From Candidatus Omnitrophota bacterium (GTDB taxonomy: Bacteria > Omnitrophota > Gorgyraeia > Zapsychrales > Fredricksoniimonadaceae): a DNA stretch of 64,000 bases. The notes under the pieces were generated by a model, which worked only from the letters and a program-made list of their open reading frames with translations, searched no databases and had not been told where the DNA came from. The DNA is taken from the NCBI GenBank assembly GCA_903861305.1, contig CAIOTT010000049.1, positions 88,246 to 152,245 of the forward strand. Direction: 5' to 3'. Both the position numbers and the translations under genes were made by a program. Of this stretch, positions 2,950 to 60,378 are shown one piece after another (the stretch's first letter is position 1; each line of letters opens with the position of its first letter).

Positions 2950-5900
2950 GTGCCACGTATGAAAACCATTATTTTTTTCAAAAAAGCATGCGGCCAGCGC
3001 CGCCCCATCGTGCTGTTTGTCCTTTTATCCTTCCTGTTGACCATCGGGATCGGCCCGGCCGGGTCGGCACGCGCTCAGGAGGCCTTTCAACTCCCGCAAC
3101 CCGGCACCCGGGTCAGTTTAAGCCCCTCTTTTATTCCGCCGCTGCTTAAGGGGGTTAAAGTTTATCCGCAGGATCCTTTCCGGCTTGATTTTATTTTGGA
3201 TGGCGGGGAGAGGCGACCTGCCGGATCTTCTCTGCATGATGATGCCACCCGCTTGATCAAATATTTCCTCGCAGCGATCACCGTCCCTGAAAAAGACCTT
3301 TGGGTGAACCTCTCCCCATATGAAAAGGACCGCATTGTTCCCGATGCCTTTGGCCAGACCGAGATGGTCCGCGATCTTCTGGCGCAGGATTATCTGCTGA
3401 AGCAGATCACCGCGTCCGTCACTGATCCCGAAGGGCAGGCGGGCAGGGAATTCTGGGCCAGGGTTTACGCTGAAGCCAGGGAGCGTTTTGGTACAGCCGA
3501 CATCCCGGTCGACACCTTTAACAAGGTTTGGATCGTCCCGGAGAAGGCCGTTGTTTACGAGACTAAGGATGCGGCGTATGTCGTGGAATCCAGGTTGAAG
3601 GTCATGCTGGAAAGTGATTACCTGGCCCAAGAGAAAAGCGTATCATCGCCACTCGCACCAGTGCCGGGGCAATTATTGCCCTCCCCCTTGTGGGGAGGGA
3701 ATGGGAGGGGGGCAGATGTCGCCAAAAACATCCTCCGTGAGATCGTCATCCCCATCCTCGAAAAAGAAGTCAATGAAGGCCGGAACTTCGCCCACTTGCG
3801 CCAGGTTTACAATTCCCTGATCCTGGCCGTGTGGTTCAAGGACAGGATCAGGTCAAGCATCTTCGGCAAAGCCTATATCGACCAGGACAAAGTCGCCGGT
3901 ATCGACATCAAGGACAGGGCTGAAAAGGACAGGATCTGGGCGCAGTACGTCGAATCCTTCAAGAAGGGGGTATATAACTTCATCCGTGAGGAAAAAGATG
4001 CGGTTTCGGGTGAAATGATCCCGCGGAAGTATTTTTCGGGCGGGATGCGCCTTGAGAATGTCAGGGAAGTTATTGTCCTTGCTCAAGAGGCGCAGCTGTC
4101 AGGGGAAGTCCCGGATCACGCCATGATCGTCCGTGCCGATATGTCAATGACCGCTGATCCCGGGATCTTCGCCAAGCCAGAGTTGATAATTGGAATTCCA
4201 GCGGAAGAAGGCATTCATTTTGAAAGACAGCGGTTGTTAAAAGACCCTGACTGGGAATTTATTAAAAGTCGAGGTGTCGATGATTTTGTATTTGGACTTG
4301 CGATGAGGAACATAGATAGGACCGGCGCTGTCCCCTTTGGGTTGAAACCATCAAAGGAAGGGCGGATCATGAATGTTGATCAATTTGAATTGATCCGCAG
4401 GGACTTTGAAAGGATCCTTAGAGAAAAAAATGGAGGAAAGAAGGAAATAACGATCTATCAATTTGGATTGGGACGAAAATTCCTGGAGACGGAAGACATC
4501 CTGAATGCATTGCAGGCGGCATTTGAAGGCCAGGGGATACTGCCTGCGCAGAGATCCATCCCGGGGACAATTCTTCCGGATGCGCAGGATCACGTGGTGG
4601 ATGCGGCTGAGAATGGGGAAGGCTCAGGCTTTGAAACAGCCCAGAAGCAGCAGCGTGAACGCGTCAGACGCAAACAGGAAGATCTGATCAAATACGCCCG
4701 ATCGCTTGCCGCCCGGTTCCCTCAATATCCCTGGCTGGCATGGGAAAGCGCGGCGATCGTCCCGTGGGGTGAAGTTGTCCGTGATACTGAACGAATGGAG
4801 CCCGATGGGCCTGTTATTCAGGACACAGAATATTTTTCATTAGAGAACCGCTGGAATTACTGGGCCAATCAGTTGGATGCGCGACGCGTGTTCCTGGACA
4901 TGCTGGCAGGATCGCTGGTGTCCATGGAAGGCGTCTCCTTTCGGGATGTCCTTGAAAAGGCGCATTCGGACCTTATCCTGGGGGAAGGGCAGGACTCTCC
5001 GTATCGCCCTGCTACCCACAAGAGTTTCTCTGCGGACAATGATCTTGTGAATATTGCCACGACCATGCGACTGTCTGTGCGCGGCCTGGAGCGCCTGAAG
5101 ACAGAATTTGGACTATTCGTGCCGCAGATAAAAGGACATACGCTTAAGCCGAAGTCCCTTTTCCCGACGATATCCTCAATATACTTAACAATGATGTGGC
5201 TTGGGTCATATGATGAGTTTGAAGCAACGAACTTTACGTTCCGGTTCGGGAACCATTCTTTAGTCATGAATTTTATCAATGCGACCCTTCGTCTTTGCGG
5301 ACTGAGCGGTATCCGGAATGGCCATTTTGATTACGATATACTTTGGGACAATGGGTTCAAAGGAAATCGTGATAAGGCTTTGGCTTATGTATCGGCTGGA
5401 CTTTCCAGGTTGGTTGCAGAAGCTGATCGCCGCAAGGCTGATCCATCCCAACTGGGTGAAGATGCCGTTGTCATGGCGCTCTCCGAGCAAGAGATCGCGA
5501 AACTTGAAACGCTTTATCCGGAGTATGATTGGCGCAATGCCGCTGTGGTCGTTTGGCCTGAATTGACGCGCCAGGCTGGTCAAAAGATAAAGAACAAGAA
5601 TCAAATGAACTATTTCGGGAATCAGGTGGTCGTCAGGAGAGAGTTTTTACATTTGGTACGCGACATATTGTCCGGTGATCTGGATACGAAGACGTTTATC
5701 GCGGCAGTCCAACGGATCCATACCTTATTATTAACAGCCACGGGTCCCTATGACCCTTCCTCGGAAGACCTTCACGAGAAGAGTTCGTCCTATCTTGAGC
5801 AGATCAAAGGCAAGTTGAGGGATGAAAGTTGGGCGCGGGCAAGATTGCAAATTATGCAAAATGACCTGGGATCGATCTTCAGCCGGGATGTCCTGACGGG

Positions 5901-6390
5901 GCCAAGGAACCGTATCGTCTCATTGATCGCCAGGTTTTATGCTGACCTTATCGTTGAACAGCGCAATCTTTTCCCGAAGGGAAATCATTCATGGGCCATG
6001 CAGCTCGTCAATACCATGCTGCGGCTTTATGGCCTCAAGGGCATTCCTCACGGGTTTCTTGATGAATTGATCAGGTATGATGAGTTCAAGACAGATGTTC
6101 CCGCAGAGATCGTGGCCCTTGTAAAAGAAGCGAATAAGAATGTTCAATTTGATGAGGCCTACAAAGATCCCGCCATGGAAGAAAAAGGCGGCATCGACTT
6201 GACCCGCGATACGATGCGCCTCAAGGTCAACAGCGACGGCCAGGGGGCCCGATTCAACTTTGATCCTGCCATGGTCCGGCGCCTTGAGAGCGCTGCGGGC
6301 ATCACCCCGGTCATCATCGATATCTGTCCGATGACAACATCGGTGCCGGCGTTCCTGGGGAGCAAGAACGGCCTTTCCGAGACAAGATAA
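2950..6390 (+). CDS. Member 1 of a large secreted-protein paralog family: signal peptide, conserved N-terminal domain, tandem GNHS...LRLxGL repeats, conserved C-terminal GGIDL domain
   Basis: The 1146-aa ORF starts at GTG 2950 or ATG 2959. The signal-peptide-like N-terminus ends ...GSARAQEA. Residues 44 to about 370 align with the N-termini of the ORFs at 25721, 40823 and 46658 (LIKYFLA.LTVPEKDLWVNLSPYEKDRIVP...FNKVWIVPEKA...LKVMLESDY...EKEVNEGRNFA.LRQVYNSLILA.W...IPRKYFSGG). The last ~80 aa (GIDLTRD...FDPAMVRRLESAAGITPVIIDI) align with the C-termini of the paralogs. Confidence 0.8.
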   Translation: MPRMKTIIFFKKACGQRRPIVLFVLLSFLLTIGIGPAGSARAQEAFQLPQPGTRVSLSPSFIPPLLKGVKVYPQDPFRLDFILDGGERRPAGSSLHDDATRLIKYFLAAITVPEKDLWVNLSPYEKDRIVPDAFGQTEMVRDLLAQDYLLKQITASVTDPEGQAGREFWARVYAEARERFGTADIPVDTFNKVWIVPEKAVVYETKDAAYVVESRLKVMLESDYLAQEKSVSSPLAPVPGQLLPSPLWGGNGRGADVAKNILREIVIPILEKEVNEGRNFAHLRQVYNSLILAVWFKDRIRSSIFGKAYIDQDKVAGIDIKDRAEKDRIWAQYVESFKKGVYNFIREEKDAVSGEMIPRKYFSGGMRLENVREVIVLAQEAQLSGEVPDHAMIVRADMSMTADPGIFAKPELIIGIPAEEGIHFERQRLLKDPDWEFIKSRGVDDFVFGLAMRNIDRTGAVPFGLKPSKEGRIMNVDQFELIRRDFERILREKNGGKKEITIYQFGLGRKFLETEDILNALQAAFEGQGILPAQRSIPGTILPDAQDHVVDAAENGEGSGFETAQKQQRERVRRKQEDLIKYARSLAARFPQYPWLAWESAAIVPWGEVVRDTERMEPDGPVIQDTEYFSLENRWNYWANQLDARRVFLDMLAGSLVSMEGVSFRDVLEKAHSDLILGEGQDSPYRPATHKSFSADNDLVNIATTMRLSVRGLERLKTEFGLFVPQIKGHTLKPKSLFPTISSIYLTMMWLGSYDEFEATNFTFRFGNHSLVMNFINATLRLCGLSGIRNGHFDYDILWDNGFKGNRDKALAYVSAGLSRLVAEADRRKADPSQLGEDAVVMALSEQEIAKLETLYPEYDWRNAAVVVWPELTRQAGQKIKNKNQMNYFGNQVVVRREFLHLVRDILSGDLDTKTFIAAVQRIHTLLLTATGPYDPSSEDLHEKSSSYLEQIKGKLRDESWARARLQIMQNDLGSIFSRDVLTGPRNRIVSLIARFYADLIVEQRNLFPKGNHSWAMQLVNTMLRLYGLKGIPHGFLDELIRYDEFKTDVPAEIVALVKEANKNVQFDEAYKDPAMEEKGGIDLTRDTMRLKVNSDGQGARFNFDPAMVRRLESAAGITPVIIDICPMTTSVPAFLGSKNGLSETR

Positions 6391-25596: not shown

Positions 25597-25635
25597 AAAG
25601 GCCTGTTTGGGGAAACTCAAACAGGCCTTTTTTCA
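25597..25635 (+). terminator. Rho-independent terminator after rpoD
   Basis: Stem aaaggcctgtttg / caaacaggcctt followed by tttttca. Confidence 0.65.
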
Positions 25636-25720
25636 TGCCTCCCGATTTGGCACTGATAATAAGTATATGTTATCTTTTAATCCAGGTGGACGCAGTTTGT
25701 GCCAACAGGGAGGGGAGGCG

Positions 25721-27418
25721 TTGGATTTAAGGCGGATTTCACAGAGATCCTTTGCGTGTGCGCTGACACTGGTATTTATGGTGTCGGATGTGAGCGTTTA
25801 TGCGCAAGGGGTGATCCAGTTGCCGCCTCCAGGTACGCGCCTGGCGTTAAGCCCGGTTTTTGTCCCGCCTGTGCTCAAGGGTGTCAAGGTTTACCGCAAC
25901 GATCCGTTCCGTTTTGATTTTATCCTTGATAAAGGTGATGCTAAAGCAACGGATGAGCAGGTTAAAATCGATTCTACGCGTCTGATCAAATATTTCCTCG
26001 CCTCCCTGACCGTTCCCGAAAAAGACCTCTGGGTCAACCTGTCCCCTTATGAAAAAGACCGCATAGTACCCGAGGCGTTCGGCCAGACAGAAATGGGCCG
26101 CGACCTGCTGGCGCAAGACTATATCCTGAAACAGATCACGGCGTCGGTGATCTATCCCGATGAAAAAGTGGGCAAGGAATTCTGGGACAAGGTTTACGCC
26201 GAAGCGCTGAAGCGTTATGGAACGACCGATATCCCCGTGGATACCTTCAACAAGGTCTGGATCGTCCCGCAGAAGGCGACGGTCTATGAAAACAAGGACG
26301 CCGCCTTCGTGGTCGAGAGCCGATTGAAGGTTATGTTGGAAACAGATTATATGGCCACTGCTCGGGCGGACATAAAGTCCGCCCCTACAACGCAAGCAAG
26401 TGACATATCGAGCGTAGGGGCGGACCTTGTGTCCGCCCGTGATGAGATCGCCAAGAACGTCCTGCGTGAAATCATCATCCCCATCCTCGAAAAAGAAGTC
26501 AACGAAGGCAAAAACTTTGCCACACTGCGCCAGGTCTACAATTCGCTCATTCTTGCAACATGGTACAAGCGCAAGGTCAAGGCCGGCATCATGGGCCAGG
26601 CGTATGTTGACAAGCAAAAAACGGGCGGGATCGATATTGCTGACAAGAATGAGAAGGAAAAGATCTGGTCACAGTACGTTGAGGCGTTCAGGCGGGGGGC
26701 GTATAATTTGATCAAAGAAGAGGTTGATCCGGGGACACAGACAATGATCCCAAGGAAGTATTTTTCAGGTGGAACAGATCTGGCCATGGAGGATAAGTTC
26801 GAGGTAAAGACCGTTGATCCTGAAGGGTCTCTCAACGTACAAAGAGGAGAGCTGTTTGTTGTTAGTACTAAAGACGAGGTTCTCCCGCCGTCGTGGAGAG
26901 AAACGACCCGTGTCGTCGATGCATTAAATATAAAAACATTTCCGGAGATTGAAAGCAGCATTGGTGTTGAATTGAGATCGGGGCATTGCGTCGTGTCTGT
27001 TTCCGGCATTTCGGGCGTCGGAAAAACAACCTTGATCGACGCGTTAGGAAAATACCTTAGGGGTATGGGGTATAACGTTGCAACGATCAAGGGAGACGAT
27101 TTCCTGAAATACAAAAAAGCGACAGCAGGTTTTTTATTCAAGAAGGTATTTGTCAAGATAGCTTCATTGTTCCCCCGCATATCGAAAGAACGGATCCTGA
27201 AGTATATATTTCAGAATTTCTTTGATCTGGACGCTGTGAATGAGTTTGAACAACAGATCAGCAAGCTGACCGAGCAAGAAAGTATATTATCGTTTAAGAC
27301 CAGAGGAGGGACGGAGCAGGTTTCGTTGGGAAAGGGAAAGAAAGTTGTTTTAGTCGAACAGATCTATGGCCGGCTATTATTCGGGCATTTTTCAAATGTT
27401 AATATACTGTTAGAATGA
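25721..27418 (+). CDS. Member 2 of the secreted-protein paralog family, N-terminal part: signal peptide, conserved N-terminal domain, P-loop NTPase/kinase-like module. Ends at an in-frame TGA
   Basis: The TTG 25721 start gives L-D-L-R-R-I-S..., matching the M-F-x-R-R start of the paralogs at 40823 and 46658. The track's 25607 start overlaps the rpoD terminator. The conserved domain QLPPPGTRLALSPVFVPPVLKGVKVYRNDPFRFDFILD...IPRKYFSGG is followed by a Walker A motif VSVSGISGVGKTTLIDALGKYL. Confidence 0.7.
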   Translation: MDLRRISQRSFACALTLVFMVSDVSVYAQGVIQLPPPGTRLALSPVFVPPVLKGVKVYRNDPFRFDFILDKGDAKATDEQVKIDSTRLIKYFLASLTVPEKDLWVNLSPYEKDRIVPEAFGQTEMGRDLLAQDYILKQITASVIYPDEKVGKEFWDKVYAEALKRYGTTDIPVDTFNKVWIVPQKATVYENKDAAFVVESRLKVMLETDYMATARADIKSAPTTQASDISSVGADLVSARDEIAKNVLREIIIPILEKEVNEGKNFATLRQVYNSLILATWYKRKVKAGIMGQAYVDKQKTGGIDIADKNEKEKIWSQYVEAFRRGAYNLIKEEVDPGTQTMIPRKYFSGGTDLAMEDKFEVKTVDPEGSLNVQRGELFVVSTKDEVLPPSWRETTRVVDALNIKTFPEIESSIGVELRSGHCVVSVSGISGVGKTTLIDALGKYLRGMGYNVATIKGDDFLKYKKATAGFLFKKVFVKIASLFPRISKERILKYIFQNFFDLDAVNEFEQQISKLTEQESILSFKTRGGTEQVSLGKGKKVVLVEQIYGRLLFGHFSNVNILLE

Positions 27419-29868: not shown

Positions 29869-29919
29869 GCAAAAAGTGAAAAAATGATTTTCTAAAGTTG
29901 AACAAACAAGGAGAAGTAG

Positions 29920-40163: not shown

Positions 40164-40292
40164 CCCTTCATTTTCATTTTCCTTCCTGTTTGACTCTTCC
40201 TAAATCATTGCACCGTCATAAGAAAGCCTTTTCCCGGCCGTGGCCGGCACGTCTTGTTTCAGCCCTGGGGGGGTGTTATCCTTCTGGCATAG

Positions 40293-40661
40293 GTGGAGAC
40301 CAAGACTATGAAACAGCTAGGGTATTTGAAACAGGAGCTTTCGCGTAACCGGGGTCGGCTGATCTCAATCCGGGAAAATATGTCGGATGAAGACAGCGAT
40401 ACCGCGACGCGGAAGAATTTCGTATACATGGTCACGCGGGTGGACGCGGTGCCTGATGAGCTCCCGGTTCCCCAGATCAGGGTCATAAAGAAGGTGGCGA
40501 CAGAGCAGCGGTATGAAGGGCTTCTGTTCAAGGTCAAGGGTGTCATTTATATTAAAAAGAACAGGTTTATCTTTCAGATCCGGTATTGTCACAGCCTTTG
40601 CATCCAGATTTATTGGAAAACCCATGTTCTCTCTTCGGATAAGCCTGCCGCTTTAGCGTAG
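40293..40661 (+). CDS. Hypothetical protein
   Basis: 122-aa ORF with no recognisable motifs. It is followed by a terminator. Confidence 0.35.
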   Translation: METKTMKQLGYLKQELSRNRGRLISIRENMSDEDSDTATRKNFVYMVTRVDAVPDELPVPQIRVIKKVATEQRYEGLLFKVKGVIYIKKNRFIFQIRYCHSLCIQIYWKTHVLSSDKPAALA

Positions 40662-40692
40662 TGCGGCTACATCCAGGCGAGGACCCTTAATG

Positions 40693-40728
40693 GATAAGGC
40701 GGCTCGAGGAAGCCGCCTTATTTTTTTT
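40693..40728 (+). terminator. Rho-independent terminator
   Basis: Stem ataaggcggct / agccgcctta followed by T8. Confidence 0.6.
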
Positions 40729-40735
40729 GCCTGCC

Positions 40736-40764
40736 TTGACAATAAAAATTTAGTCGTATATATT
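40736..40764 (+). promoter_or_regulatory. Sigma70-like promoter (TTGACA, 17-nt spacer, TATATT) in an AT-rich region upstream of the giant family member
   Basis: ttgaca at 40736-40741 and tatatt at 40759-40764. Confidence 0.45.
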
Positions 40765-40822
40765 TCTATACATATAACTACATTTATTGACATATTTACG
40801 CCATTTATAAACAGGATTTCTT

Positions 40823-43800
40823 ATGTTTATCCGAAGGTTTTTATCATGTTTTGTCTGTTTTTCGTTTGTTTCTACCTGCCTTATCCCTCCTGCTTACGCT
40901 CAAACAGCCTTTAAGTTGCCTCAACCAGGGGCCATGGTAGGTCTTTCAAGTAGTTTCATGCCTGTTGTCTTGAAGGGCGTGCACCTTCATCCTGAAAATC
41001 CGCTTCTATTTGATTTTATTGTAGATGCCGGGGACTCGGGTTTTTCGTTTGAAGGCCCGCAGTTCAAGGCTGAGTCCGAAAGGCTCATTAAATATTTCCT
41101 CGCTTCGCTCACGGTCAAGGAAGGCGACCAGTGGGTAAACCTTTCTCCCTACGAAAAAGACCGCATGATCCCTGAAGACCTGGGGAAGACCGAACTGGGC
41201 CGCGACATGCTGGCGCAGGATTACATCCTCAAGCAGTTGACCGCTTCGCTGGTTTATCCGGAGAAGGGCTTAGGCAAGGAATTCTGGGCCAAGGTGTATG
41301 AGAAGGCCCAGGCACAGTTCGGCACCATCGATGTGCCGGTGGATACTTTCAATAAAGTCTGGATCACAGCCGACAAGGCCCGCGTCCTGGAACGCAACAA
41401 TACCGCTTATGTGGTTGGCGCGCACTTGAAGGTTATGTTGGAATCGGACTATATGGCGGCCGCGCAGTCGTCCGGCGTGGGTAGGGGCGGGTCTGTGACC
41501 CGCCCACTTGACAACGCTCAAGAACTGACCAAACAAGTCATGCGCGACGTCATCATCCCCCAGATCGAAAAAGAAGTGAATGAAGGCAATAATTTCAGCC
41601 AATTGCGCCAGATCTTCTACGCCATGATCCTGTCCACCTGGTACAAGCGGGCCCTTAAAACCGCCCTCCTGAACCAGGTCTACAGCAACAAGTCCAAGAC
41701 CAGCGGTGTCGAGAACGCCGATCCGGGCGTGAAGGAAAAGATCTACGCCCAGTACCTGGAAGCCTACCGCAAGGGCGTGTTCAACTATATTAAGGAAGAG
41801 ACGAACGCCGCCGGCGAAACCATCCCGCGAAAATATTTTTCAGGCGGTTTGGACAGAAATTTGAATGTGGATCAGGCGATGGAAGTGATCGATAAGGCGG
41901 CGGCGGGGGATTCTTTAAAAGGAAAGAAAGAAGCCGTGGTCACTGCTGTAATTGATGCTGCAGAGGCATTTAATACTTTATATTTGAGTGAGCAAGGAGC
42001 GCTTTTACTGAGGTTGATCAGGATATTCAAGAGATCTGATTTTCATTGGGGAATATATAAAACGCCTGTTTCAGTTCGCTTGATCGACGGGCAGGGGGTA
42101 GCGAAGAAGGTCATTACGGTCACCCGTGAAGATTGGCAGAATGGTATTGCCGGCATATCAGATAAGTTGCAACATCTTGTGAGTTTATCAACGGATGTGC
42201 CTTTATGGATGATCAAGCTGAAGAAGTCGCCGTACTCGCAGATATTGTCTGTTGACATTACCCCATTCACTTACGAGGGTCTGGCCAGGGAGTGGAATCA
42301 AGGGCATGTCATATCAACGTATTTGGTCAGCCCGCAGAACAAGGGATTTTCATATCAGATCAAGATAGAGCCTTTACAACCGGACGGGCTTGCAGATAAA
42401 AATAAAAATATTATTTGGGATGCTGGAAGCAAGACGTTGCGGATCTTTCTGGATTACAACACGCCGGTGGGGCAGTTCGACCGGCAGAAGTTCTTTGACG
42501 GGATCATTGCGATGGTCGCGGAATTGCAAAATGTGAGCATCAAGAAAGAACTGGAACACAATAAGACACGTTTGGCGCATTTTTTGGGATTGAATATCGA
42601 GGCGGAGCGCGTTCGTGATCTGCGTGAAAAAAGGGATCTGTTGCATAACAAGACAGGCATAAGACCCGAAGAATTGACGTCAGTTAAGATGGAACTGGCC
42701 CTGGCGGAATTTCAATTCGGTGGCGATGTTGTGGACCTGAGCGATATGCCCGGTCCAGAGCGGCAGGCAGCGGTGACACAAGCGATCCGATATGGGTTGA
42801 TCCCCTTGTTGGCGGCACGTCAGGATGTTCAGGAGGTTTTGTCGCATTATCCGCAAGCATTGTCTGCCAGGAGGGTCGGGCCGGGAGAGGCTAATCAGGC
42901 CGTCCTCTCCGGAGCCGGGGTGATCCTTGTGTCGCCGGATGTTACGGCCAATGAAATCAAAGAAGCCCGGGGATTGTCGTTGCGCGTGAGATATAAACCG
43001 CTTGTTGTGATGGTGACAAAAGATGTTTTGAACGTGGACCGGGAGTCTCTTGATCTGGACGGAAAATACGATGGCATTGATCTGAGATTTAGAGGGAGTC
43101 TCCCGGCAGTATTGGATAAATCCAGTGAGGTAGGAAATCTTATAAAATATATTAAAAGAAAGTCTCCGATACCGATGATCATGATTTCCGGAGATGTGAA
43201 CGACGAGAATCGGGATCGTGTGGCTAATGGGGTCAAGGGGGAATTTCATCTGACATCCATGCGTGCCTTCGATGAATTAGAAAACATTGCGCATACGGCG
43301 TTCCAGCACGATGATGCCATGACAAAAGAGGAAGAGACGGGCGCTGCTGGCAAAATTTCCCCGGAAGCGCAAAATATCCTGGATGAAATAAAAAATTACG
43401 CCGTGATTCCCTTGCAATATTGGCCTTTGGATGTGACCACATGGTATGGTGTGCGCACGGCGCAATTGATCATTAAAGAAGGTTTTGAGGACGATCCTGA
43501 GGCGCTTTCAGCGTTGATAGAGGGCGCGATCAAGAGGAGCGGCGCAGGTTTCTCTGCAGCCAGAATGAAAGATGGGCGATCTCTCCATGATGTTGCCTGT
43601 GAGATCGGGTTGGTGGATCCTTCAGACGGGAATATGAATGTGGGCATGGTGCGTATTCTGGAAAAAATTATATTTTATGGCGACGTCATGTTTCAAAAGA
43701 GTGATTTCGATGAACTTCCGAATAAAGCACATGCTCTGATGGAGAGCAGTAACAGGGATGGAGGGATAACGGTTCCATCAGATCTTTCTTTCAAGGATGC

Positions 43801-46642
43801 AGTCGGTTTGTTGAACCCGATGGAGACGCTGTTTAAGGCATATATCAAATTAGAGCAAGGTTGGAAGTTGATCGATGATCAAATGAAAGCTATTGATGTT
43901 GTAAGTAAGATGCTTGGCATTCAATCAAGGGAGCTTATTGAGAAAATGAAATCGGCCCAATTGATGGAACAGCCGGATGGTCAACCCTTTAAGAAGGCGC
44001 TATTGGAGCTTATTTATCCACTGGGTGATTCTGTCAGGATGGTGGGTATCAAGTCTGAATTCAAGTTTTACGGGACATTGCAGCAGATCGATTTGAAGAA
44101 ATTATATCAGGAGCTTCCTGGGGTTTTCGGGAATAATGCTGCAGGGTTTAATAAATCAGAACAATGGGATGCGTTGATCGCCGGCGCGCACAATGACATT
44201 TATAGCGCGATTGAACAAAGCCGTCGGGGCGAGCTTCAAGGACCCGCGAAGCATCAGGCTGGAGAACCTTCTGATGTTGTGCTCCCGCAAGGGGGAGCGC
44301 AAGATCCGTTGGTCAATTGGTTTGTCACCAGGATCATGTCGCGGTTGAAGTGGTTTATTCAGGGCAACAAGAAGATGATCCTGGAGAATGATGTTGAACA
44401 GCTTGAGGCGCATTTCAAGATCCGGCTCATGGCGAGAAATCCTTCAGAAGCCGATCCTGAGGGCCGGGTTATTTTTGCGCCTGTAGGCAGTTCTAATGAT
44501 GCGGCGCAAGAAAAGAAGGACGCGTCAGACCATCCTGAAATGAACCCTGCATCCCGGCTTTTGCTGCCGTATACAACAACAGAAATGGCGAAATTTCAGG
44601 TCCAGGAAATTTTGCTTGATCTTGATCTTAAGGAGAAAGTTATCCCGATCCTGTTGCGCGACGTCAAAGAGGACGTTCGGGATAATATTTCTTCTGTAGA
44701 AGATAAACAGGCTTTTCTGGTCGCTGTATTGAACTCTGCTTTTAAAGCATACTGGATGAGGCATGCGATCGGTCATCCCGCGGCTGAACTGATTTTTTCC
44801 TTCTTGAAGGAGTTGTCCGGCAATGATGTCAAACGCATGGATCTTGTGCGATCAAAAATGTGGCGGGATCAGTTTTCTGTGTATCTGGGGCGTGTTGCCA
44901 AGAGGATGGTGGATGGGGTGGTCGCTGGTCCTGAAAAAACAAACAAGGAACCCTTGACCCTGAAACCAGGCATGACATTAGAGGATGCCATGTCGGCCGT
45001 GGCTGATATTGTATTGGATCCGGCGGATACTTCAGCGCGTCTTGTGGCGATGGCGGATGAGATAATGAAATTTCTCAACCAGGACGATTTTATTAATTTT
45101 GAAAAGAAAGAGTTCCTTCTGGGTGTTCTTAACCTGAGCAGGGAAGCCCGTGAAGTTTGCCGTTATGAGAACAACTCCACTAAGATGAGCCTTATCGAAG
45201 CGTTCGTTCATAAATTGACGCGTGGGGCCATTGGAAATGTGGAATTGGATCGTTATGTATTGGATCCGGATGAGTTTACACAACAATGGGACAGTGTTGT
45301 CGATGAGCTTCTCGGACCTGCACCTCTTCCAGATCAGCCTAAAAAGAGACCTGGATCCCCGATGTTGACGCCGGAAATGTCCCTGGCGTTGGCGATAGGG
45401 ACGGTGAATGAGGCGTTTCACAGGAAAGATATGTCTTATAATGATTATTTGTTGTTGCTCCGTGATGTAAAGCAGTATGTCACGCATAATATTTCTTCTG
45501 TCCACGACCAACAGTATTTTTTGTTCACGGTTTTACATCAGGGGCTGTCGATGTACGGGTTGTACTGGCATGCAAGATCATCTGCGGCGGCACCCATTGC
45601 TTTATTCCTGAAAGAATTTTCCGGCGACGTTGTTGTGGCAGAGAATATTGTGCGATCAAGGATCAGACAAAACGCGTTAGATAAGCTCCTGGACGATGCT
45701 GTCAGAAGTATATGGAGCGGGATCTTTCTGGAAAAACTTCAGAAGATGGCGTTAGAGCCGCGGGTCCTGGGCGAATTAAATAGGATCTCACAGGTCGCGT
45801 TGGCAGACGGCCCATTTGACGGGAATTCCTGGGTGTGGGGGGCGGCGCAGAAGATCGGGTTATTGAAGATCACCCCAACGGAGTTCCTCGTTGACCTGAC
45901 CATGGCGCGTTTTTTGGATAATGCGATAACCGTTGATGAGAAGGATCGCGGACGGGGGCATATCCTTGTGCCTGGGGAGCAGAGGCTTGTGCCGGAGATG
46001 ACGACGGCGCGCGCGGTGGATCTGGTCGATCAGATCTTCCTTGCTCCCGATGTCACCCCAGGGCGTCTTGTGGCGCTGGTTGATGAAATACGGAGATTCC
46101 TTGGTCAGTCGAGGTTGTTGAGGGATGACAAAATGGAGTTCCTGGAGCATGTATTTTTTAGTAGTGTCGAGACGCGTGAACTTGCCCGAGACAACAAAAA
46201 TACCCGGAAAATGAACGCCATGGCCGTATTTCTCAAGGAACTGTCGGGTGGTGTTATTGGGGAAGCGCAGATGGACCGTTACGCGCTGTCTCGTAATATG
46301 CAGCCCGATTATTATGGGGACCCGGATGCATTTAAATGGCAATGGCGCAAGGTTGTGGATGACATTGTGAGATCAATGGAGCAATCAGATCTGGCGCAAG
46401 ATACGCCTGCAGCTAAAGTCAACGGTGGTATCGACATGAATGGGAAGAAGATGACACTTGATGTGGCACGTGAAGGCAAGGGCATTGAGATGAAACTCGA
46501 CCCGGCGATGGTCGCGCGGTTCGAGCGCGGCGATTTTACGGGGGTCGTGCCGGTCATTCTCAAGGTCACGCCCATTGCCAGCCCTTTGCCGCTATTGGGC
46601 ATGGGCACGTCCATGGACATTCAAGATAAGATCAGCGGGTAA
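40823..46642 (+). CDS. Member 3 of the secreted-protein paralog family: 1939-aa giant protein with signal peptide, conserved N-terminal domain, a long lower-GC central region with internal repeats, and conserved C-terminal GGIDL domain
   Basis: Signal peptide MFIRRFLSCFVCFSFVSTCLIPPAYAQTA. The N-terminal domain aligns with the paralogs (KLPQPGAMVGLSSSFMPVVLKGVHLHPENPLLFDFIVD...IPRKYFSGG). Four internal repeat units share the consensus [FL]xKELSG / hxKLTRG (...ELIFSFLKELSGNDV, ...PIALFLKEFSGDVV, ...AMAVFLKELSGGVIG, ...IEAFVHKLTRGAIG). C-terminus VNGGIDMNGKKMTLDV...LDPAMVARFERGDFTGVVPVILKV. Confidence 0.8.
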   Translation: MFIRRFLSCFVCFSFVSTCLIPPAYAQTAFKLPQPGAMVGLSSSFMPVVLKGVHLHPENPLLFDFIVDAGDSGFSFEGPQFKAESERLIKYFLASLTVKEGDQWVNLSPYEKDRMIPEDLGKTELGRDMLAQDYILKQLTASLVYPEKGLGKEFWAKVYEKAQAQFGTIDVPVDTFNKVWITADKARVLERNNTAYVVGAHLKVMLESDYMAAAQSSGVGRGGSVTRPLDNAQELTKQVMRDVIIPQIEKEVNEGNNFSQLRQIFYAMILSTWYKRALKTALLNQVYSNKSKTSGVENADPGVKEKIYAQYLEAYRKGVFNYIKEETNAAGETIPRKYFSGGLDRNLNVDQAMEVIDKAAAGDSLKGKKEAVVTAVIDAAEAFNTLYLSEQGALLLRLIRIFKRSDFHWGIYKTPVSVRLIDGQGVAKKVITVTREDWQNGIAGISDKLQHLVSLSTDVPLWMIKLKKSPYSQILSVDITPFTYEGLAREWNQGHVISTYLVSPQNKGFSYQIKIEPLQPDGLADKNKNIIWDAGSKTLRIFLDYNTPVGQFDRQKFFDGIIAMVAELQNVSIKKELEHNKTRLAHFLGLNIEAERVRDLREKRDLLHNKTGIRPEELTSVKMELALAEFQFGGDVVDLSDMPGPERQAAVTQAIRYGLIPLLAARQDVQEVLSHYPQALSARRVGPGEANQAVLSGAGVILVSPDVTANEIKEARGLSLRVRYKPLVVMVTKDVLNVDRESLDLDGKYDGIDLRFRGSLPAVLDKSSEVGNLIKYIKRKSPIPMIMISGDVNDENRDRVANGVKGEFHLTSMRAFDELENIAHTAFQHDDAMTKEEETGAAGKISPEAQNILDEIKNYAVIPLQYWPLDVTTWYGVRTAQLIIKEGFEDDPEALSALIEGAIKRSGAGFSAARMKDGRSLHDVACEIGLVDPSDGNMNVGMVRILEKIIFYGDVMFQKSDFDELPNKAHALMESSNRDGGITVPSDLSFKDAVGLLNPMETLFKAYIKLEQGWKLIDDQMKAIDVVSKMLGIQSRELIEKMKSAQLMEQPDGQPFKKALLELIYPLGDSVRMVGIKSEFKFYGTLQQIDLKKLYQELPGVFGNNAAGFNKSEQWDALIAGAHNDIYSAIEQSRRGELQGPAKHQAGEPSDVVLPQGGAQDPLVNWFVTRIMSRLKWFIQGNKKMILENDVEQLEAHFKIRLMARNPSEADPEGRVIFAPVGSSNDAAQEKKDASDHPEMNPASRLLLPYTTTEMAKFQVQEILLDLDLKEKVIPILLRDVKEDVRDNISSVEDKQAFLVAVLNSAFKAYWMRHAIGHPAAELIFSFLKELSGNDVKRMDLVRSKMWRDQFSVYLGRVAKRMVDGVVAGPEKTNKEPLTLKPGMTLEDAMSAVADIVLDPADTSARLVAMADEIMKFLNQDDFINFEKKEFLLGVLNLSREAREVCRYENNSTKMSLIEAFVHKLTRGAIGNVELDRYVLDPDEFTQQWDSVVDELLGPAPLPDQPKKRPGSPMLTPEMSLALAIGTVNEAFHRKDMSYNDYLLLLRDVKQYVTHNISSVHDQQYFLFTVLHQGLSMYGLYWHARSSAAAPIALFLKEFSGDVVVAENIVRSRIRQNALDKLLDDAVRSIWSGIFLEKLQKMALEPRVLGELNRISQVALADGPFDGNSWVWGAAQKIGLLKITPTEFLVDLTMARFLDNAITVDEKDRGRGHILVPGEQRLVPEMTTARAVDLVDQIFLAPDVTPGRLVALVDEIRRFLGQSRLLRDDKMEFLEHVFFSSVETRELARDNKNTRKMNAMAVFLKELSGGVIGEAQMDRYALSRNMQPDYYGDPDAFKWQWRKVVDDIVRSMEQSDLAQDTPAAKVNGGIDMNGKKMTLDVAREGKGIEMKLDPAMVARFERGDFTGVVPVILKVTPIASPLPLLGMGTSMDIQDKISG

Positions 46643-46657
46643 TAAAAAGGAGCCTCT

Positions 46658-49600
46658 ATGTTCTTCAGAAGGATCATGTCAATTATTGTTTGCCTGGCGT
46701 TTATCCTTACCAGCCTGACCCCTTCAGCATATGCCCAGACAGTCTTTAATTTGCCTCAACCCGGCACCATGGTCGATCTTTCCGGTGCTTTTGCGCCGGC
46801 TGTTCTGAAAGGCGTAACCATCCATCCCGCGGATCCTTTGTTGTTTGATTTTATCGTCGATAACGGCCAAAGCGGGCTTCAGGGCCAGGCGCTGACCGAT
46901 GAGACCACCAAGCTGGTGAAATATTTCCTGGCGGGGCTGGCAGTCCCTGAAAAAGACCTTTGGGTCAACCTGTCGCCGAAAGAAAATGAGCGCGTCATGG
47001 CGGATGACCTGAGCCGCACGGATGTTGGCAGTGCGATGCTGGCGCAGGATTATATCCTGAAACAAGTGACCGCGAGTTTGATGTATCCGGAAAAAGACCT
47101 GGGGCGCAGGTTTTGGGACGAGATCTACAAGCGCGCTTATGCGCAGTTCGGCAATACCAATATGCCGGTGGATACTTTCAATAAGGTTTGGATCATGCCG
47201 GCGGAAGCAACGGTTTATCAGAACGGGAATGACGCGTTCGTCGGCCGTGCGCAGCTTAAGGTGATGCTGGAGAGTGATTTTGAGGCTGCGAAAGGCGTGG
47301 TCTCCCGGCAGGCGGCTGCCGATATCGAGCTGGCCAAGGGTGTTGTCCGTTCCGTGATCCTTCCTGTTTTGGAAAAGGAAGTCAATGAAGGCAGGAATTT
47401 TGCCCCCCTGCGCCAGGTGTTCCATTCCATGATCCTGGCCGGGTGGTACAAGAATGCCCTCAAGGAAAGCTTGCTCGCCCGGGTCTATGCCAACACGAAC
47501 AAGGTCAGCGGCATCGAGATCCCCGAGAAGGATGCCCGTGAAAAAGTGTACGCTCAGTACATGGAAGCTTACCAGAAGGGCGTGTACAACTATGTTAAGG
47601 AAGAGTTGGACCGCAATACGAACGAAGCCGTGCCCCATAAGTATTTCTCTGGTGGTATCACCGAGTTAAGTGTTGATCCCGGGAAGGCTGATGTGTCACA
47701 GGTGGATTTCAAGGGGGCTTCTACGAAGCAGTCTTATAGATTGGATGTTTCCACAGACGGGGCGCAGGAGTTGAGCCGGGCAGATCAGAAGGTTCTCGAT
47801 GGGGCAAAAACGATCATAGAAAGCTTGTTGACGGAGTCATACCAGAACGGCGATATTACGGATACCGTTTATAAAAATGCCCTTGCGAATACGTACAAGA
47901 ATCTTGTTGAATGGACGCAGGATCCGGATATTTATCGCATCGATCCCAGCATCCGTGCGGCCAATCTTGCGGCGATCCGTGACGGCCGTTGGGATGACAT
48001 TATAGAGGCGTACCGACAGGATATCCTGTTCGGGACAGCCGGCATCCGTGGAAAAGCGGTCCTTTCAGAGAAAGAATTGCAGACATTCAAGGCCGAGGGG
48101 CCCTTGGGGAATTTCCTGAAAGGTCCCAATACGATCAACACCTTCAAACTCTTGAAGACCACGCAGGGCCTCATCAAAATGGCCAGGGAGACGGGCTTAA
48201 AACGGGTTGTCATAGGCTATGACAGCCGTATCGGCGGCGCGGCATTCGCGGACATGATCGCGCGTCTTTTTATTGCCCAGTCCACGCCGGAGCATGAGTT
48301 CAAGATATTCCTTTTTGATGAAGCAAGCCCTTTTCCGGAGCTTTCTTACGGCATAACGACGGATGTGGTGAAAGGCGACATCGGTTTGCTCATTTCTGCG
48401 AGCCACAATCCCGCGGATTACAATGGCTATAAGATCACGCTGGGCAACGGGGCACAGTTGAACCAGGCCAGCAAAAATCAGGTCACGGCGGCCATTGATC
48501 AGGTCAGGAATTCCGACATTGTTATGGCTGCTTCGCTGGCCGACGCAAAACCAGGACAGCTCGTGTGGCTTGGAGGCAGTGAGGCGCTTGAGGGTAAGGA
48601 TTATTACGGGTTCGAGCGCATTGATATGCACTCATTGCATGTTGAACAAGTAAAGAAATTCATCTTGAACAAGGAAGTTGTCGTTGCACATTCCGGTGAT
48701 TTGAAGTTCGGCTTTGCAGCGTTCAATGGCGCGGGATTTAAGGCCGTGCCACGATTGTTGAGGGAGACCGGGTTCACCAACGTCAAGGTTATTGAGAAAC
48801 TTCAGAAACTCGACGGCAGTTTTCCGGCGTGGAAGTTTGGCGAACAACCGGATCCCGGCGACCCTATTTCTGCGGATATTGCTGTGAAGGAGTTCATTGC
48901 AGAATACGGCCAGCAGGTGTTTGATCTGCTGGATGCTTTGTTCGGCACTGATCCTGATGCGGACAGGATGGGGTTGAGCGTCAAGGTTCCCGAGTCCCAG
49001 CAGAAATATTTCGGGAAGTACCGGTTACTTTCCGCGAATGACGTTTGGACATTGTTAATATGGTATCGGTTGTCCATGAAAAAGCAAATGGGTCTGCTGG
49101 AAAATCCTTCTAATCATGCGGTCGCATTCAGCCACGTAACAACAGATGCCATTGAAGCTGTGGCGAAAATGTTTGGCGTCGATGCTATTGGGAAAATGCT
49201 TGATGTGACAGGCACCCTTGAAAAAGGAGATTACCTGGCGGGCCGCAGGACATGGGTTGGGTTCACTTACCTTGCGGATATATTGGAAGATGCGTATCAG
49301 ATGGGAAAGTTCGTTGAAATGCTGGCGGAGGAGTCGAACGGTGTGAGCGTGCAGGGCCATACTAAGGAAAAGGATGGGACGCTCGCCGTGATCCTTGTGG
49401 CTGAAGTTGCGGCGTATGCCAGATCTCAGGGTAAAACTTTGTTTGAACTCCTGGATGATGTCTATGCGCTGATTGGTCATTATGCCACGGCCAACAAGCC
49501 GTTGCCAAGGGTCGGGTCGTTCGAGAAAGCGGCCGGGGTCTCAGAAAAGATCAAGATCATTAAAAGATCCCAGGAATGGGGCACGAAGGCCAATGAGGAT

Positions 49601-50269
49601 GCGCATACGGACCATCCGTTCATGATCGCGGGGAAAAAGGTCCTTGGCGCTGTCGAGTTCGCTTCCGGCCGTATCGATAAGACCCATTACGCCGGTGTTC
49701 CGGATGAAGGGGTTCGTTTCTTTTTTGAAGATGAGCAGCTCCAGCCGGGGGATCCTTTTACCAATAGCCATAATTACATCACGATCCGCGCTTCAGGAAC
49801 GTCACAGGCGCTGCGGTTCTACACACAGATATTTTCCCGGGATGTGAGCCCGGAGCAGAAAGCCAAAAATTATGCTGAGGCTGAGCGCGTCGCGCTTGAA
49901 GCGCAGCGACAGATACTTGAGGAAGTCAACCTTGAGAAACATCTTCCTCCGGTCAGAGCGCAGCTTGAAAGTATTTATGCGCAAAACGAGCCTGTCGCTG
50001 ATAAAGCCCAGGATCTGGGCGGTATCGACCTCGGCCAGGGCAATTACCTCAAGGTCATCGCGACGGGAACGGCGGGCGTCCCGCAATTTGACCCTGCCCA
50101 GCTGAAACAGTTGCAGAAAGACCTGCGCGGGGTCATCCCCGTTCCGGTGGGCGTTCCTGTGCCGGTCAGTGTGCGGCCGCTCCTGGGGCTGGATCCTAAT
50201 AGCGGCAACGAGAACCTCCAGCTGAGCCAGATGGGGCCATTGACGTTTGAGGTCGAACAGGACGCATAA
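46658..50269 (+). CDS. Member 4 of the secreted-protein paralog family, fused to an alpha-D-phosphohexomutase (phosphoglucomutase/phosphomannomutase) domain
   Basis: Signal peptide MFFRRIMSIIVCLAFILTSLTPSAYAQT. Conserved N-terminal domain. Phosphohexomutase motifs: GTAGIRGKAV, the active-site Ser loop SASHNPADYNGYKI, the metal loop GTDPDADRMG and the phosphate loop IRASGTSQALR. C-terminus DLGGIDLGQGNYLKV...FDPAQLKQL...GVIPVPVGVPV. Confidence 0.8.
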   Translation: MFFRRIMSIIVCLAFILTSLTPSAYAQTVFNLPQPGTMVDLSGAFAPAVLKGVTIHPADPLLFDFIVDNGQSGLQGQALTDETTKLVKYFLAGLAVPEKDLWVNLSPKENERVMADDLSRTDVGSAMLAQDYILKQVTASLMYPEKDLGRRFWDEIYKRAYAQFGNTNMPVDTFNKVWIMPAEATVYQNGNDAFVGRAQLKVMLESDFEAAKGVVSRQAAADIELAKGVVRSVILPVLEKEVNEGRNFAPLRQVFHSMILAGWYKNALKESLLARVYANTNKVSGIEIPEKDAREKVYAQYMEAYQKGVYNYVKEELDRNTNEAVPHKYFSGGITELSVDPGKADVSQVDFKGASTKQSYRLDVSTDGAQELSRADQKVLDGAKTIIESLLTESYQNGDITDTVYKNALANTYKNLVEWTQDPDIYRIDPSIRAANLAAIRDGRWDDIIEAYRQDILFGTAGIRGKAVLSEKELQTFKAEGPLGNFLKGPNTINTFKLLKTTQGLIKMARETGLKRVVIGYDSRIGGAAFADMIARLFIAQSTPEHEFKIFLFDEASPFPELSYGITTDVVKGDIGLLISASHNPADYNGYKITLGNGAQLNQASKNQVTAAIDQVRNSDIVMAASLADAKPGQLVWLGGSEALEGKDYYGFERIDMHSLHVEQVKKFILNKEVVVAHSGDLKFGFAAFNGAGFKAVPRLLRETGFTNVKVIEKLQKLDGSFPAWKFGEQPDPGDPISADIAVKEFIAEYGQQVFDLLDALFGTDPDADRMGLSVKVPESQQKYFGKYRLLSANDVWTLLIWYRLSMKKQMGLLENPSNHAVAFSHVTTDAIEAVAKMFGVDAIGKMLDVTGTLEKGDYLAGRRTWVGFTYLADILEDAYQMGKFVEMLAEESNGVSVQGHTKEKDGTLAVILVAEVAAYARSQGKTLFELLDDVYALIGHYATANKPLPRVGSFEKAAGVSEKIKIIKRSQEWGTKANEDAHTDHPFMIAGKKVLGAVEFASGRIDKTHYAGVPDEGVRFFFEDEQLQPGDPFTNSHNYITIRASGTSQALRFYTQIFSRDVSPEQKAKNYAEAERVALEAQRQILEEVNLEKHLPPVRAQLESIYAQNEPVADKAQDLGGIDLGQGNYLKVIATGTAGVPQFDPAQLKQLQKDLRGVIPVPVGVPVPVSVRPLLGLDPNSGNENLQLSQMGPLTFEVEQDA

Positions 50270-50296
50270 CTCCAGAAAAATTGTGGCGCATTCTTT

Positions 50297-50332
50297 AAGC
50301 CGGAGGCAAAAAGCCTCCGGCTTATTTTTTCA
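50297..50332 (+). terminator. Rho-independent terminator after family member 4
   Basis: Stem taagccggaggc / gcctccggctta followed by tttttt. Confidence 0.65.
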
Positions 50333-59928: not shown

Positions 59929-60378
59929 ATGCGATTTGAACGGGCTTCCAATAAACAGTTAGGCGAACTTCTTGTTGAGCGCGGTGTTATCACGCGCGCT
60001 CAGCTTGACAGCGCACTTGAATATCAGAAGAGCCACAAGGGAATTCTGGTGGGCGAAGCTTTGGTCGATCTCGGCGTCGCTACAGAAGAAGATATCGCCC
60101 AGGCGCTGACCTGCCAGTACGGGTTCCCCTACCTTCCGCTTGCCAATTACGAGGTTGACAAGGAGGTGCTCTCGTCTGTTCCGGGTAATATCTGTGAGCA
60201 GTTCTGCCTTGTTCCCATTGATAAGATCGGCAAGAACATAACGCTGGCCATGTCCAATCCGCTCAATGTCAAGGCGGTGGAGAGCGTTGAGCTTTTGTCC
60301 GGATGTTCCGTACAGACTTTTGTGAGTACGGCGGGGGATATCCGCAATGCTATCAAGAGGTATTACGGTTCCACGTAA
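59929..60378 (+). CDS. Stand-alone MshEN / T2SS-E N-terminal domain protein (predicted c-di-GMP-binding)
   Basis: Two tandem 24-residue MshEN motifs: LGELLVERGVITRAQLDSALEYQ and VGEALVDLGVATEEDIAQALTCQ. These are followed by a GSPII_E_N-like alpha/beta domain. Confidence 0.7.
   Translation: MRFERASNKQLGELLVERGVITRAQLDSALEYQKSHKGILVGEALVDLGVATEEDIAQALTCQYGFPYLPLANYEVDKEVLSSVPGNICEQFCLVPIDKIGKNITLAMSNPLNVKAVESVELLSGCSVQTFVSTAGDIRNAIKRYYGST

Follow-up and report, generated by a model that had tools for sequence, protein, structure and literature searches.

The phosphoglucomutase (PGM) CT295 of Chlamydia trachomatis is a secretion substrate (PMC9251005), and the glycogen enzymes of Chlamydia are secreted into the inclusion, where they act in the lumen (PMC4829429). 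For Omnitrophota, West-Roberts et al. located PGM/PMM, PGI, TPI and FBA domains in the predicted extracellular parts of giant proteins and weighed two explanations, i.e., a topology error or an extracellular pre-processing of sugars (bioRxiv 10.1101/2023.11.21.568195). A 2026 preprint lists PF02878-80 in 64-88 long Omnitrophota proteins, with signal peptides or transmembrane (TM) helices in 94% (10.64898/2026.06.07.730766). Here, we study a 1203-aa protein in which a mutase of this type follows a predicted signal peptide. Its open reading frame (ORF) occupies positions 46658..50269 on the + strand of a 64,000-nt stretch of DNA from a Candidatus Omnitrophota bacterium (GenBank assembly GCA_903861305.1, contig CAIOTT010000049.1, positions 88,246 to 152,245), which was analysed as a whole and is called the window in the following. 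Within the protein, the mutase is a cargo that is bracketed by an N-terminal and a C-terminal module (N-module, C-module). The protein does not stand alone but belongs to a very large family in which many cargoes are enzymes of cytoplasmic type.

The described systems resemble this protein in different respects. In Chlamydia, a host-dependent bacterium of the Planctomycetes-Verrucomicrobia-Chlamydiae (PVC) group exports a housekeeping PGM as well as glycogen-pathway enzymes beyond its own cytoplasm, and the likeness would be one of function. There, a type III secretion signal is found on an ordinary enzyme, whereas the protein studied here combines a Sec-type signal with two carrier modules and shows no link to a type III secretion system (T3SS); no T3SS genes are found within the window. 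The giant Omnitrophota proteins ('Archaeovorins' and others) share signal peptides as well as PGM/PMM, PGI, hexokinase, starch-synthase, HEAT, WD40 and TPR domains in predicted extracytoplasmic regions. They are, however, multi-TM proteins of 10,000-147,000 aa, while our target has 1.2 thousand amino acids (kaa), a single cargo and defined N- and C-modules. That is, metabolic domains in exported giant Omnitrophota proteins and a secreted PGM are known already. In contrast, we found no description of the modules, of the bracketed single-cargo family of 0.4-4.5 kaa and its size, or of its cysteine depletion in the literature searched, including the giant-protein preprints.

Omnitrophota are widespread, uncultured and ultra-small bacteria that are thought to be predators or parasites. 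Such lifestyles have been proposed along with ATP/ADP translocases in some members (PMC10066038).

The mutase cargo and its free-standing relatives

Phosphohexomutases interconvert sugar 1- and 6-phosphates via a phosphoserine/Mg2+ mechanism with a bisphosphate intermediate. The original prediction, made from the sequence of the window, had assigned the signature loops GTAGIRG, SASHNPADYNGYK, DPDADR and RASGTSQ to the 1203-aa product, in this order and with the separations of a full enzyme. We find ORF, loops and order as it described them, with 185 residues between the Ser and the Mg loop and 279 residues from there to the phosphate loop.

For the Ser, Mg, sugar and phosphate loops, the profile of a clade of free-standing relatives (see below) provides an alignment to the solved enzymes 1TUO and 1WQA. 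The N-terminal loop GTAGIRG (residues 459-465; 48032..48052, + strand as for all features in this text) contains the G-T-x-G-I-R pattern that is invariant in the clade. The catalytic phosphoserine loop SASHNPADYNGYK (residues 580-592, with Ser582; 48395..48433) is aligned to TASHNP of both 1TUO and 1WQA, and its SASHNP at 580-585 fits the superfamily's phosphoserine motif (T/S)(A/G)SHN(P/D). The Mg2+-binding loop DPDADR (residues 765-770; 48950..48967), again invariant in the clade, is aligned to DGDADR of 1TUO. The sugar-binding loop EESNG (residues 891-895; 49328..49342), which the original prediction had not mentioned, corresponds to GEESGG of 1TUO, and the phosphate-binding loop RASGTSQ (residues 1044-1050; 49787..49807) to RASGTEP of 1TUO and 1WQA. 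The R, S, G and T of the latter are conserved in the clade (consensus RPSGTSQ).

All three Pfam models PGM_PMM_I (5e-22), II (9e-8) and III (6e-7) exceed their gathering scores. Domain IV (PF00408) is not detected by Pfam in the target; its loop is nevertheless aligned by the profile. The original prediction had proposed to superimpose a structure model on PGM/PMM structures. We did so for an AlphaFold2 model of residues 375-1203, which has a predicted local distance difference test (pLDDT) score of 80.7 and a predicted template modelling score (pTM) of 0.83. The pLDDT is mostly >90 over about the first 470 modelled residues, lower beyond and low in the C-module. The superposition succeeds: the best structural match is 1TUO with an E-value of 1.4e-24 and a target-normalised template modelling (TM-)score of 0.85, and it extends across the whole solved enzyme including domain IV. 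Further fold matches are T. kodakarensis PGM, Salmonella PGM, human PGM1 and P. aeruginosa PMM/PGM. The four-domain phosphohexomutase fold, i.e., three alpha/beta/alpha domains plus the C-terminal domain IV, is thus recovered in the predicted model.

Members of the alpha-D-phosphohexomutase superfamily with solved structure (1TUO from T. thermophilus, 1WQA from P. horikoshii, 1K35, i.e., P. aeruginosa PMM/PGM, and human PGM1) share this fold, with TM-scores of 0.69-0.85 on the target, and the canonical loop order. They differ from the target in several aspects. Identity is 15-19%; the cargo is longer (about 715 aa vs. 450-570 aa) and contains insertions besides its N-terminal helical extension; its phosphate loop reads RxSGTSQ instead of RxSGTEP; and it is embedded in a multi-module protein that is predicted to be exported. 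The NCBIfam equivalog models GlmM, PgmG and PMM/PGM match weakly and far under their cut-offs. We therefore treat the cargo as a member of the superfamily to which no named specificity can be assigned.

A search with residues 441-1091 yields thousands of matches. Apart from fusions, the top matches are free-standing proteins with a length of 700-750 aa and a query coverage of 98-100%, from Bathyarchaeota, Aenigmatarchaeota, Woesearchaeota, Parcubacteria, Zixibacteria, Latescibacteria, Gemmatimonadetes and Candidatus Omnitrophica. In BLASTP comparisons, target residues 374-1091 align to residues 7-754 of several clade members at 35-52% identity, and the cargo covers positions 4-722 of the 724 positions of the clade's hidden Markov model (HMM). 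Since this homology spans residues of about 375-1090, the cargo (residues 376-1090; 47783..49927) represents a long-type PGM-like protein in its full length, N-terminal helical extension included, in agreement with Pfam and fold matches. The original prediction had correctly placed the mutase in the central and C-terminal part of the protein, while its domain start near residue 480 has to be moved to about 376.

The free-standing proteins are homologous to the cargo from end to end (98-100% of its length, 36-52% identity) and show the same loop variants. Their consensus reads FGTAGIRG / SASHN(D/P)xxYNGYK / GTDPDADR / E(Q/E)SNGFS / RPSGTSQ; DPDADR and SGTSQ are therefore normal for the clade. 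The nearest named free-standing relative is the Omnitrophica protein MDD4203159.1 (P0127; 751 aa, about 52% identity, no signal peptide), which suggests that the lineage recruited its own gene.

The long-type clade (about 740 aa; e.g., P0127 and P0195) is found in archaea, the candidate phyla radiation (CPR) and many bacterial phyla and is marked by an N-terminal helical extension of about 100 aa. Its members reach no NCBIfam equivalog cut-off and have no close solved structure. The clade appears uncharacterised, and we know of no biochemical study of it. Among the PGM cargoes of the carrier family, at least two unrelated subtypes occur, i.e., the long type and classical ones with PF00408.

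Every fused orthologue that we examined retains all loops, at 45-87% identity. This conservation, together with the match to the free-standing consensus, argues for continued selection on catalysis, and on its basis we reject a dead enzyme. Likewise, the loss of catalytic residues that the original prediction had named as evidence against itself is not seen, since Ser, Mg, sugar and phosphate loops are all intact by sequence. With Pfam domains I-III, conserved loops and the four-domain fold, its claim of an intact mutase stands, and the enzyme is apparently complete and active as judged from these features. The same conservation bears on a non-catalytic use of the fold, in which the mutase body would moonlight as a module for binding, adhesion or decoy functions, or would be a structural spacer. 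Surface-exposed glycolytic enzymes that act as adhesins are known in pathogens, and many cargoes of the family are repeat or binding scaffolds, with HEAT, ANK, WD40 and TPR repeats among the hits of the N-module. Given that no fused orthologue examined, even at 45% identity, has lost a catalytic loop and that the loops agree with the free-standing clade, we consider such a use improbable.

Signal peptide, cysteine content and predicted export

Residues 1-26 (46658..46735) form a predicted Sec-type signal peptide with cleavage at AYA↓Q, where the arrow marks the cleavage site. The presequence MFFRRIMSIIVCLAFILTSLTPSAYA↓QT is composed of a positive n-region (MFFRR), a hydrophobic core of 15 residues (IMSIIVCLAFILTSL) and a Pro-containing c-region with an AxA site (TPS-AYA↓Q, with P22 and A-Y-A). 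It has the features of Sec signals for signal peptidase I (SPase I), i.e., a positive n-region, a hydrophobic core of 7-15 residues, a helix-breaking c-region and small residues at -3 and -1. With a Kyte-Doolittle (KD) hydropathy of 3.17 over 12 residues, the core is the sole hydrophobic segment of the protein. The layout is common to 108 relatives, which have a positive n-region in 97% of cases, a mean 12-residue hydropathy of 2.6 and the c-region consensus P-P-(A/S)-Y-A↓Q. Both this shared pattern and the similarity to the adjacent paralogue (see below) bear out the original idea of a mutase that is fused behind a cleavable-looking signal peptide and a family scaffold.

Other ways of sorting were considered and rejected. 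Export of the folded enzyme by twin-arginine translocation (Tat) would require a conserved twin-arginine motif of the type (S/T)RRxFLK. RR is present in the target but in only 49/229 family members, none of which fits (S/T)RRx-hydrophobic-hydrophobic, and the core is strongly hydrophobic. A lipoprotein or pilin-type signal is discarded, since the sequence has neither a lipobox Cys nor the motif G↓F(T/M)LIE. Finally, a second TM segment that could return the cargo to the cytoplasm was not found in the protein.

A second line of evidence is the cysteine content. The mature protein (27-1203) holds 0 Cys in 1177 residues. Among 243 family members, the N-modules contain 0.02% Cys; the cargo and C regions contain 0.08% and are Cys-free in 135 of 238 members. 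As controls, we used the non-family ORFs of the same loci (1.11% Cys) and the free-standing long-PGM homologues (0.87% Cys; 0/109 Cys-free). The latter, which have no signal peptide and no N- or C-module, thus differ from the Cys-free target cargo in composition as well as in architecture. Three alignment columns that are mostly Cys in the free-standing homologues are S, A and A in the target. Purging of cysteine is typical for proteins that are kept disulfide-free outside the cytoplasm, such as autotransporter passengers, type I substrates and S-layer proteins, and it has no rationale for a cytoplasmic domain. The family-wide purge is therefore independent support for an extracytoplasmic fate.

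Both lines of evidence also bear on whether the protein could be a membrane-tethered cytoplasmic enzyme, with an uncleaved N-terminal anchor followed by N-module, mutase and C-module on the cytoplasmic side. Such a placement would resolve the substrate paradox, as sugar phosphates and ATP are cytoplasmic. Furthermore, the 2026 preprint places many of the long Omnitrophota proteins in a TM-only class whose bulk is cytoplasmic (10.64898/2026.06.07.730766). In the target, however, the net charge is positive N-terminal of the core, and no charge follows for about 25 residues. According to the positive-inside rule, this distribution gives an N-in/C-out orientation even without cleavage, such that the bulk is predicted outside. 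In addition, the core has only about 15 residues, is followed by Pro and the conserved AxA↓Q, and the cysteine purge relative to cytoplasmic homologues and neighbours would have no reason in the cytoplasm. We thus regard the tethered form as very improbable. A cytoplasmic or uncleaved anchor, which the original prediction had raised against its own reading, is likewise at odds with the N-in orientation, the short h-region, the AxA site and the near-total lack of Cys.

Based on presequence and cysteine purge, we consider Sec export of the enzyme beyond the producer's cytoplasm likely, while we rate a further translocation or display as about evenly balanced.

The carrier-cargo family and the possible fate of its cargoes

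The signal peptide is directly followed by the N-module (residues 27-335; 46736..47662), a family scaffold of about 310 aa that reaches from LPQPG to KYFSGG and is 49-72% identical to relatives. Linker 1 (residues 336-375; 47663..47782) fills the stretch from where the HMM match of the N-module ends to where the homology to free-standing PGM-like proteins begins. Behind the cargo, linker 2 (residues 1091-1119; 49928..50014), which is a low-confidence region of the model, leads to the C-module (residues 1120-1180; 50015..50197). The C-module has about 60 aa with the pattern GGIDL ... FDPA ... PV.V.VP ... PLLGL, in which GGID and P are invariant. The protein ends with an acidic tail (residues 1181-1203; 50198..50269 including the stop codon) that has no K/R and 4 D/E. 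Similar tails are found in relatives; a C-terminal TM helix is absent from the target, and the tail is not basic.

A search with the whole protein gives more than 2,285 matches, nearly all of them to the N-module only and at about 50% identity. Where a source name is given, it is Candidatus Omnitrophota/Omnitrophica, with the exception of one Elusimicrobia label. When compared to 1.84 billion cluster representatives, the N-module profile hits 8,316 proteins (clusters at 50% identity), 6,741 of them at E<=1e-30. In 150/150 representatives among the matches listed, the N-module stands directly behind the presequence; the respective proteins have 376-4553 aa. Species-representative genomes contain at least 585 N-module loci, of which 80, several from the same genome, were kept for analysis. 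These 80 are labelled Omnitrophota/Omnitrophica, 'uncultured Planctomycetales' (23 third-party annotation (TPA) assemblies) or plain 'bacterium' (2). The Planctomycetales-labelled family genes (L002, L003, L012, L016, L020 and others) are as similar to the query (about 50-55%) as the Omnitrophota-labelled ones, and the label is probably a taxonomic misassignment.

The C-module is found at the extreme C-terminus in 89/119 family hits; among the fetched loci, this is the case for 70 ORFs. Judged from the 80 fetched loci, ORFs with a C-module only are either cut by the locus edge or frameshifted copies. When the C-module profile was run against a set of 5.8 billion proteins, all hits were short C-terminal fragments that lie on short contigs. 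In the fetched loci, family genes often occur in tandem. Taken at the sequence level, this is an N/C-bracketed modular family of putative carrier-cargo proteins that, among the metagenome-assembled genomes (MAGs) examined, occurs in those labelled Omnitrophota or (probably mislabelled) Planctomycetales only.

The cargoes are diverse. Besides the repeat-type ones given above, Pfam identifies for N-module hits the enzymes PGI, hexokinase, UDP-glucose pyrophosphorylase, aldose 1-epimerase and starch/glycogen synthase (GT5), as well as NDK, adenylate kinase, cytidylate kinase, PGK, transketolase and LpxC. Further cargoes are NAD-dependent epimerase, HMGL-like, radical SAM, SAM methyltransferase and receiver domains; glycoside-hydrolase and uridine-kinase-like cargoes also occur in the family.

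Two groups of known proteins are built in a similar way. MARTX and polymorphic toxins also combine conserved terminal regions with exchangeable cargo, multiple paralogues and tandem arrays. They show no homology to our family, however, which carries metabolic or repeat cargoes instead of toxins and in which no immunity gene or autoprocessing protease domain was recognised. Substrates of the type IX secretion system (T9SS) with their C-terminal domain (CTD), as well as passengers of the type I secretion system (T1SS) and of autotransporters, share the Sec signal, the passenger, a conserved module at the extreme C-terminus (T9SS) and a strong avoidance of cysteine, which is a mark of substrates that have to pass an outer membrane in unfolded form. 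In contrast to these, the family has no match to known CTD models, no beta-barrel and no identified cognate machinery, and T9SS substrates have no counterpart of the N-module.

The explanation that we favour, although we hold it to be no better than an even call, is that of a carrier-cargo protein that is exported by Sec, then undergoes a second, module-dependent step and brings the enzyme to act at or in a host. First, the signal peptide would take the unfolded chain across the inner membrane and be cut after A26; that the enzyme thereby ends up outside the producer's cytoplasm is probable. Second, a chain without cysteine would form no disulfides, which suits another translocation or an attachment to the surface. 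By analogy to the logic of T9SS, T1SS or autotransporter substrates, the terminal modules may be carrier, anchor or sorting tag, for which we see arguments of equal weight on both sides. Third, and only tentatively, the enzyme might work at or within the cells of a host or prey, which contain sugar phosphates. Its partners there could be the sibling cargoes, i.e., hexokinase, PGI, UDP-glucose pyrophosphorylase, starch/glycogen synthase, NDK, adenylate kinase, PGK and transketolase, which would redirect the host's carbohydrate and nucleotide pools. Jointly, they could convert glucose via glucose 6-phosphate (G6P), glucose 1-phosphate (G1P) and UDP-glucose into glucan and balance nucleotides. 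Still more doubtful is the broadest version of this idea, in which the family, with more than 8,000 clusters and probably several to many copies per genome, would make up the set of substrates of a yet undescribed route of secretion or injection by which ultra-small Omnitrophota deliver whole housekeeping enzymes into host or prey to rewire carbohydrate and nucleotide metabolism, with the modules as carrier and recognition elements.

Several results weigh against the favoured explanation. The N-module has no Pfam, NCBIfam or PDB match, where 'no known fold' is a provisional statement as the model is moderately confident. The C-module is poorly modelled (pLDDT 40-57), and its region (residues 1105-1203) has no Pfam or NCBIfam match at E<=10. 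The roles given to both modules are thus argued by analogy only. Among the known sorting signals covered by Pfam/NCBIfam (T9SS CTD, PEP-CTERM, LPXTG, GlyGly-CTERM, autotransporter barrel), none is found in the modules. Furthermore, about a quarter of the family hits, many of them partial sequences, and also a 603-aa paralogue in the window show no recognisable C-module. No recurring neighbour gene such as a transporter or sortase was found near family genes in 69 loci; the best recurring cluster is a generic histidine kinase in 9/69 loci. Finally, neither a normal periplasm nor the medium offers the ATP on which the kinase cargoes depend. A delivery to the host would agree with this, but it equally marks the third step as speculative.

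The same observations are to be judged for a protein that stops in the periplasm, or in an enlarged PVC-type compartment, and takes part in a sugar-phosphate and nucleotide metabolism located there, with the modules organising an enzyme assembly, e.g., on membrane or cell wall. We consider this unlikely. It is true that the Sec signal is the only demonstrable targeting feature, that no secretion system is linked to the family genes, and that the cargo set forms a coherent pathway from glucose, G6P, G1P and UDP-glucose to glucan, plus NDK and ADK. The 2026 preprint also reads the metabolic domains of giant proteins as 'periplasmic/extracellular face' (10.64898/2026.06.07.730766). On the other hand, several cargoes are kinases, while neither ATP nor sugar phosphates are known in the bacterial periplasm, and the conserved module resembles a sorting tag in its position at the extreme C-terminus. 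An ordinary periplasmic solute-binding protein in the window keeps 0.94% Cys, such that the family's tenfold purge needs more than periplasmic residence.

If the proteins go further and are displayed on the surface via N- and/or C-module, mutase and siblings might pre-process sugars and sugar phosphates from lysed prey or the environment before uptake, as West-Roberts et al. suggested for the giant proteins (bioRxiv 10.1101/2023.11.21.568195). Signal peptide, cysteine-free chain and terminal modules would agree with this, as would the aldose epimerase and glycoside-hydrolase cargoes. We nevertheless rate such a display as unlikely, too, because an open medium is hardly a sensible place for ATP-dependent cargoes (hexokinase, PGK, ADK, NDK, uridine-kinase-like) and UDP-glucose pyrophosphorylase. 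A phosphomutase, in addition, requires its bisphosphate cofactor and Mg2+, and we recognise neither a cell-wall-binding nor an S-layer-type domain in the modules.

The design of the family, seen in thousands of proteins nearly devoid of cysteine, suggests that these tiny, host-dependent bacteria transfer enzymes of cytoplasmic type to places beyond their own cytoplasm. If the family indeed exports intact metabolic enzymes, it would constitute a large, sequence-definable arsenal of 'metabolic effectors' and offer a handle on a new pair of secretion or sorting signals. It would also explain the puzzling 'extracellular' glycolytic domains of giant Omnitrophota proteins. Furthermore, genome-based metabolic reconstructions would count PGM, PGI and hexokinase genes whose products may not act in the organism's own cytoplasm. 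With the N-module HMM and the cysteine signature, the hypothesis can be tested directly in enrichment cultures and metaproteomes.

The two-gene unit and other features of the window

The mutase gene starts with ATG, and a Shine-Dalgarno sequence AGGAG (46648..46652), read directly from the sequence, is located 5 nt ahead of it. Upstream, a 1939-aa paralogue is encoded at 40823..46642. The original prediction had called this neighbour a paralogue, and the comparison agrees: it is 56% identical to the target over the first 350 residues and 35% identical in the C-module, and the last ~80 residues are related. It consists of signal peptide, N-module, a repeat-containing cargo and C-module, where both modules are matched by their HMMs; a Pfam search finds no domain in it. 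As only 15 nt separate the two genes, they are probably co-transcribed. A strong terminator-like hairpin that ends the upstream unit (40692..40723; 13-bp stem, then T-run) precedes a sigma-70-like promoter candidate (40736..40764; TTGACA-17-TATATT), which is put forward for its consensus match of 11/12 positions only. Downstream, a strong intrinsic-terminator-like hairpin (50296..50324; 12-bp stem with 8 GC pairs, then T-run) closes the unit. The two paralogues hence form a discrete predicted transcription unit bounded by candidate promoter and terminator-like hairpins. It is flanked by the housekeeping genes lepA, lepB, a pgsA-like gene and plsY upstream, and by genes for a peptidoglycan (PG)-binding protein, a PfkB kinase, an exonuclease, SPOR and LpoB downstream.

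Within the cargo of the 1939-aa neighbour, units of the type ...ISSV.D.Q.FL..VL... and ...FLKELSG... recur. The gene call of the European Nucleotide Archive (ENA) for this neighbour begins 45 codons downstream (1894 aa) and thereby loses the signal peptide; annotation pipelines may therefore hide export signals of the family.

According to tblastn, the window contains four family genes in total (2950-6390, 25607-27418, 40823-46642 and 46658-50269). The third paralogue (2950..6390; 1146 aa) has N- and C-modules and a cargo without Pfam match. By eye only, this cargo shows two repeats that resemble a degenerate Fic motif (F.FGNHS...N..LRL.GL) with the catalytic His missing. The fourth (25607..27418; 603 aa) combines an N-module with a P-loop kinase-like cargo and has no C-module, which is therefore not obligatory. 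Its P-loop reads GISGVGKTT, while MobB and AAA_16 matches are weak. All four genes lie in GC dips of 0.47-0.53 compared to a background of 0.55-0.59 (window positions 2000-6000, 26000-28000 and 40000-50000), and their base composition is unlike that of the surrounding housekeeping genes.

The window also encodes PGK, TIM and a GlgC-like glucose-1-phosphate nucleotidyltransferase in their ordinary form, i.e., with no signal peptide (6468-8466 and 16320-17543). The organism has thus normal cytoplasmic sugar-phosphate enzymes beside the fused ones, which therefore are additional copies.

About 10 kb downstream of the two-gene unit, two tandem GspE/PilB-type secretion ATPases (T2SSE + MshEN) are encoded at 60303-62129 and 62129-63832, for which no link to the family is established. 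The regions 27931-28115 and 29490-29869 contain tRNA-Met(CAT), tRNA-Val(CAC) and a bacterial class A RNase P RNA (144 bits). ORFs from the mechanical listing that overlap the RNase P RNA are hence probably no genes. All credible genes of the window are on the + strand and the GC skew is positive throughout, consistent with a single replichore and a strong leading-strand gene bias.

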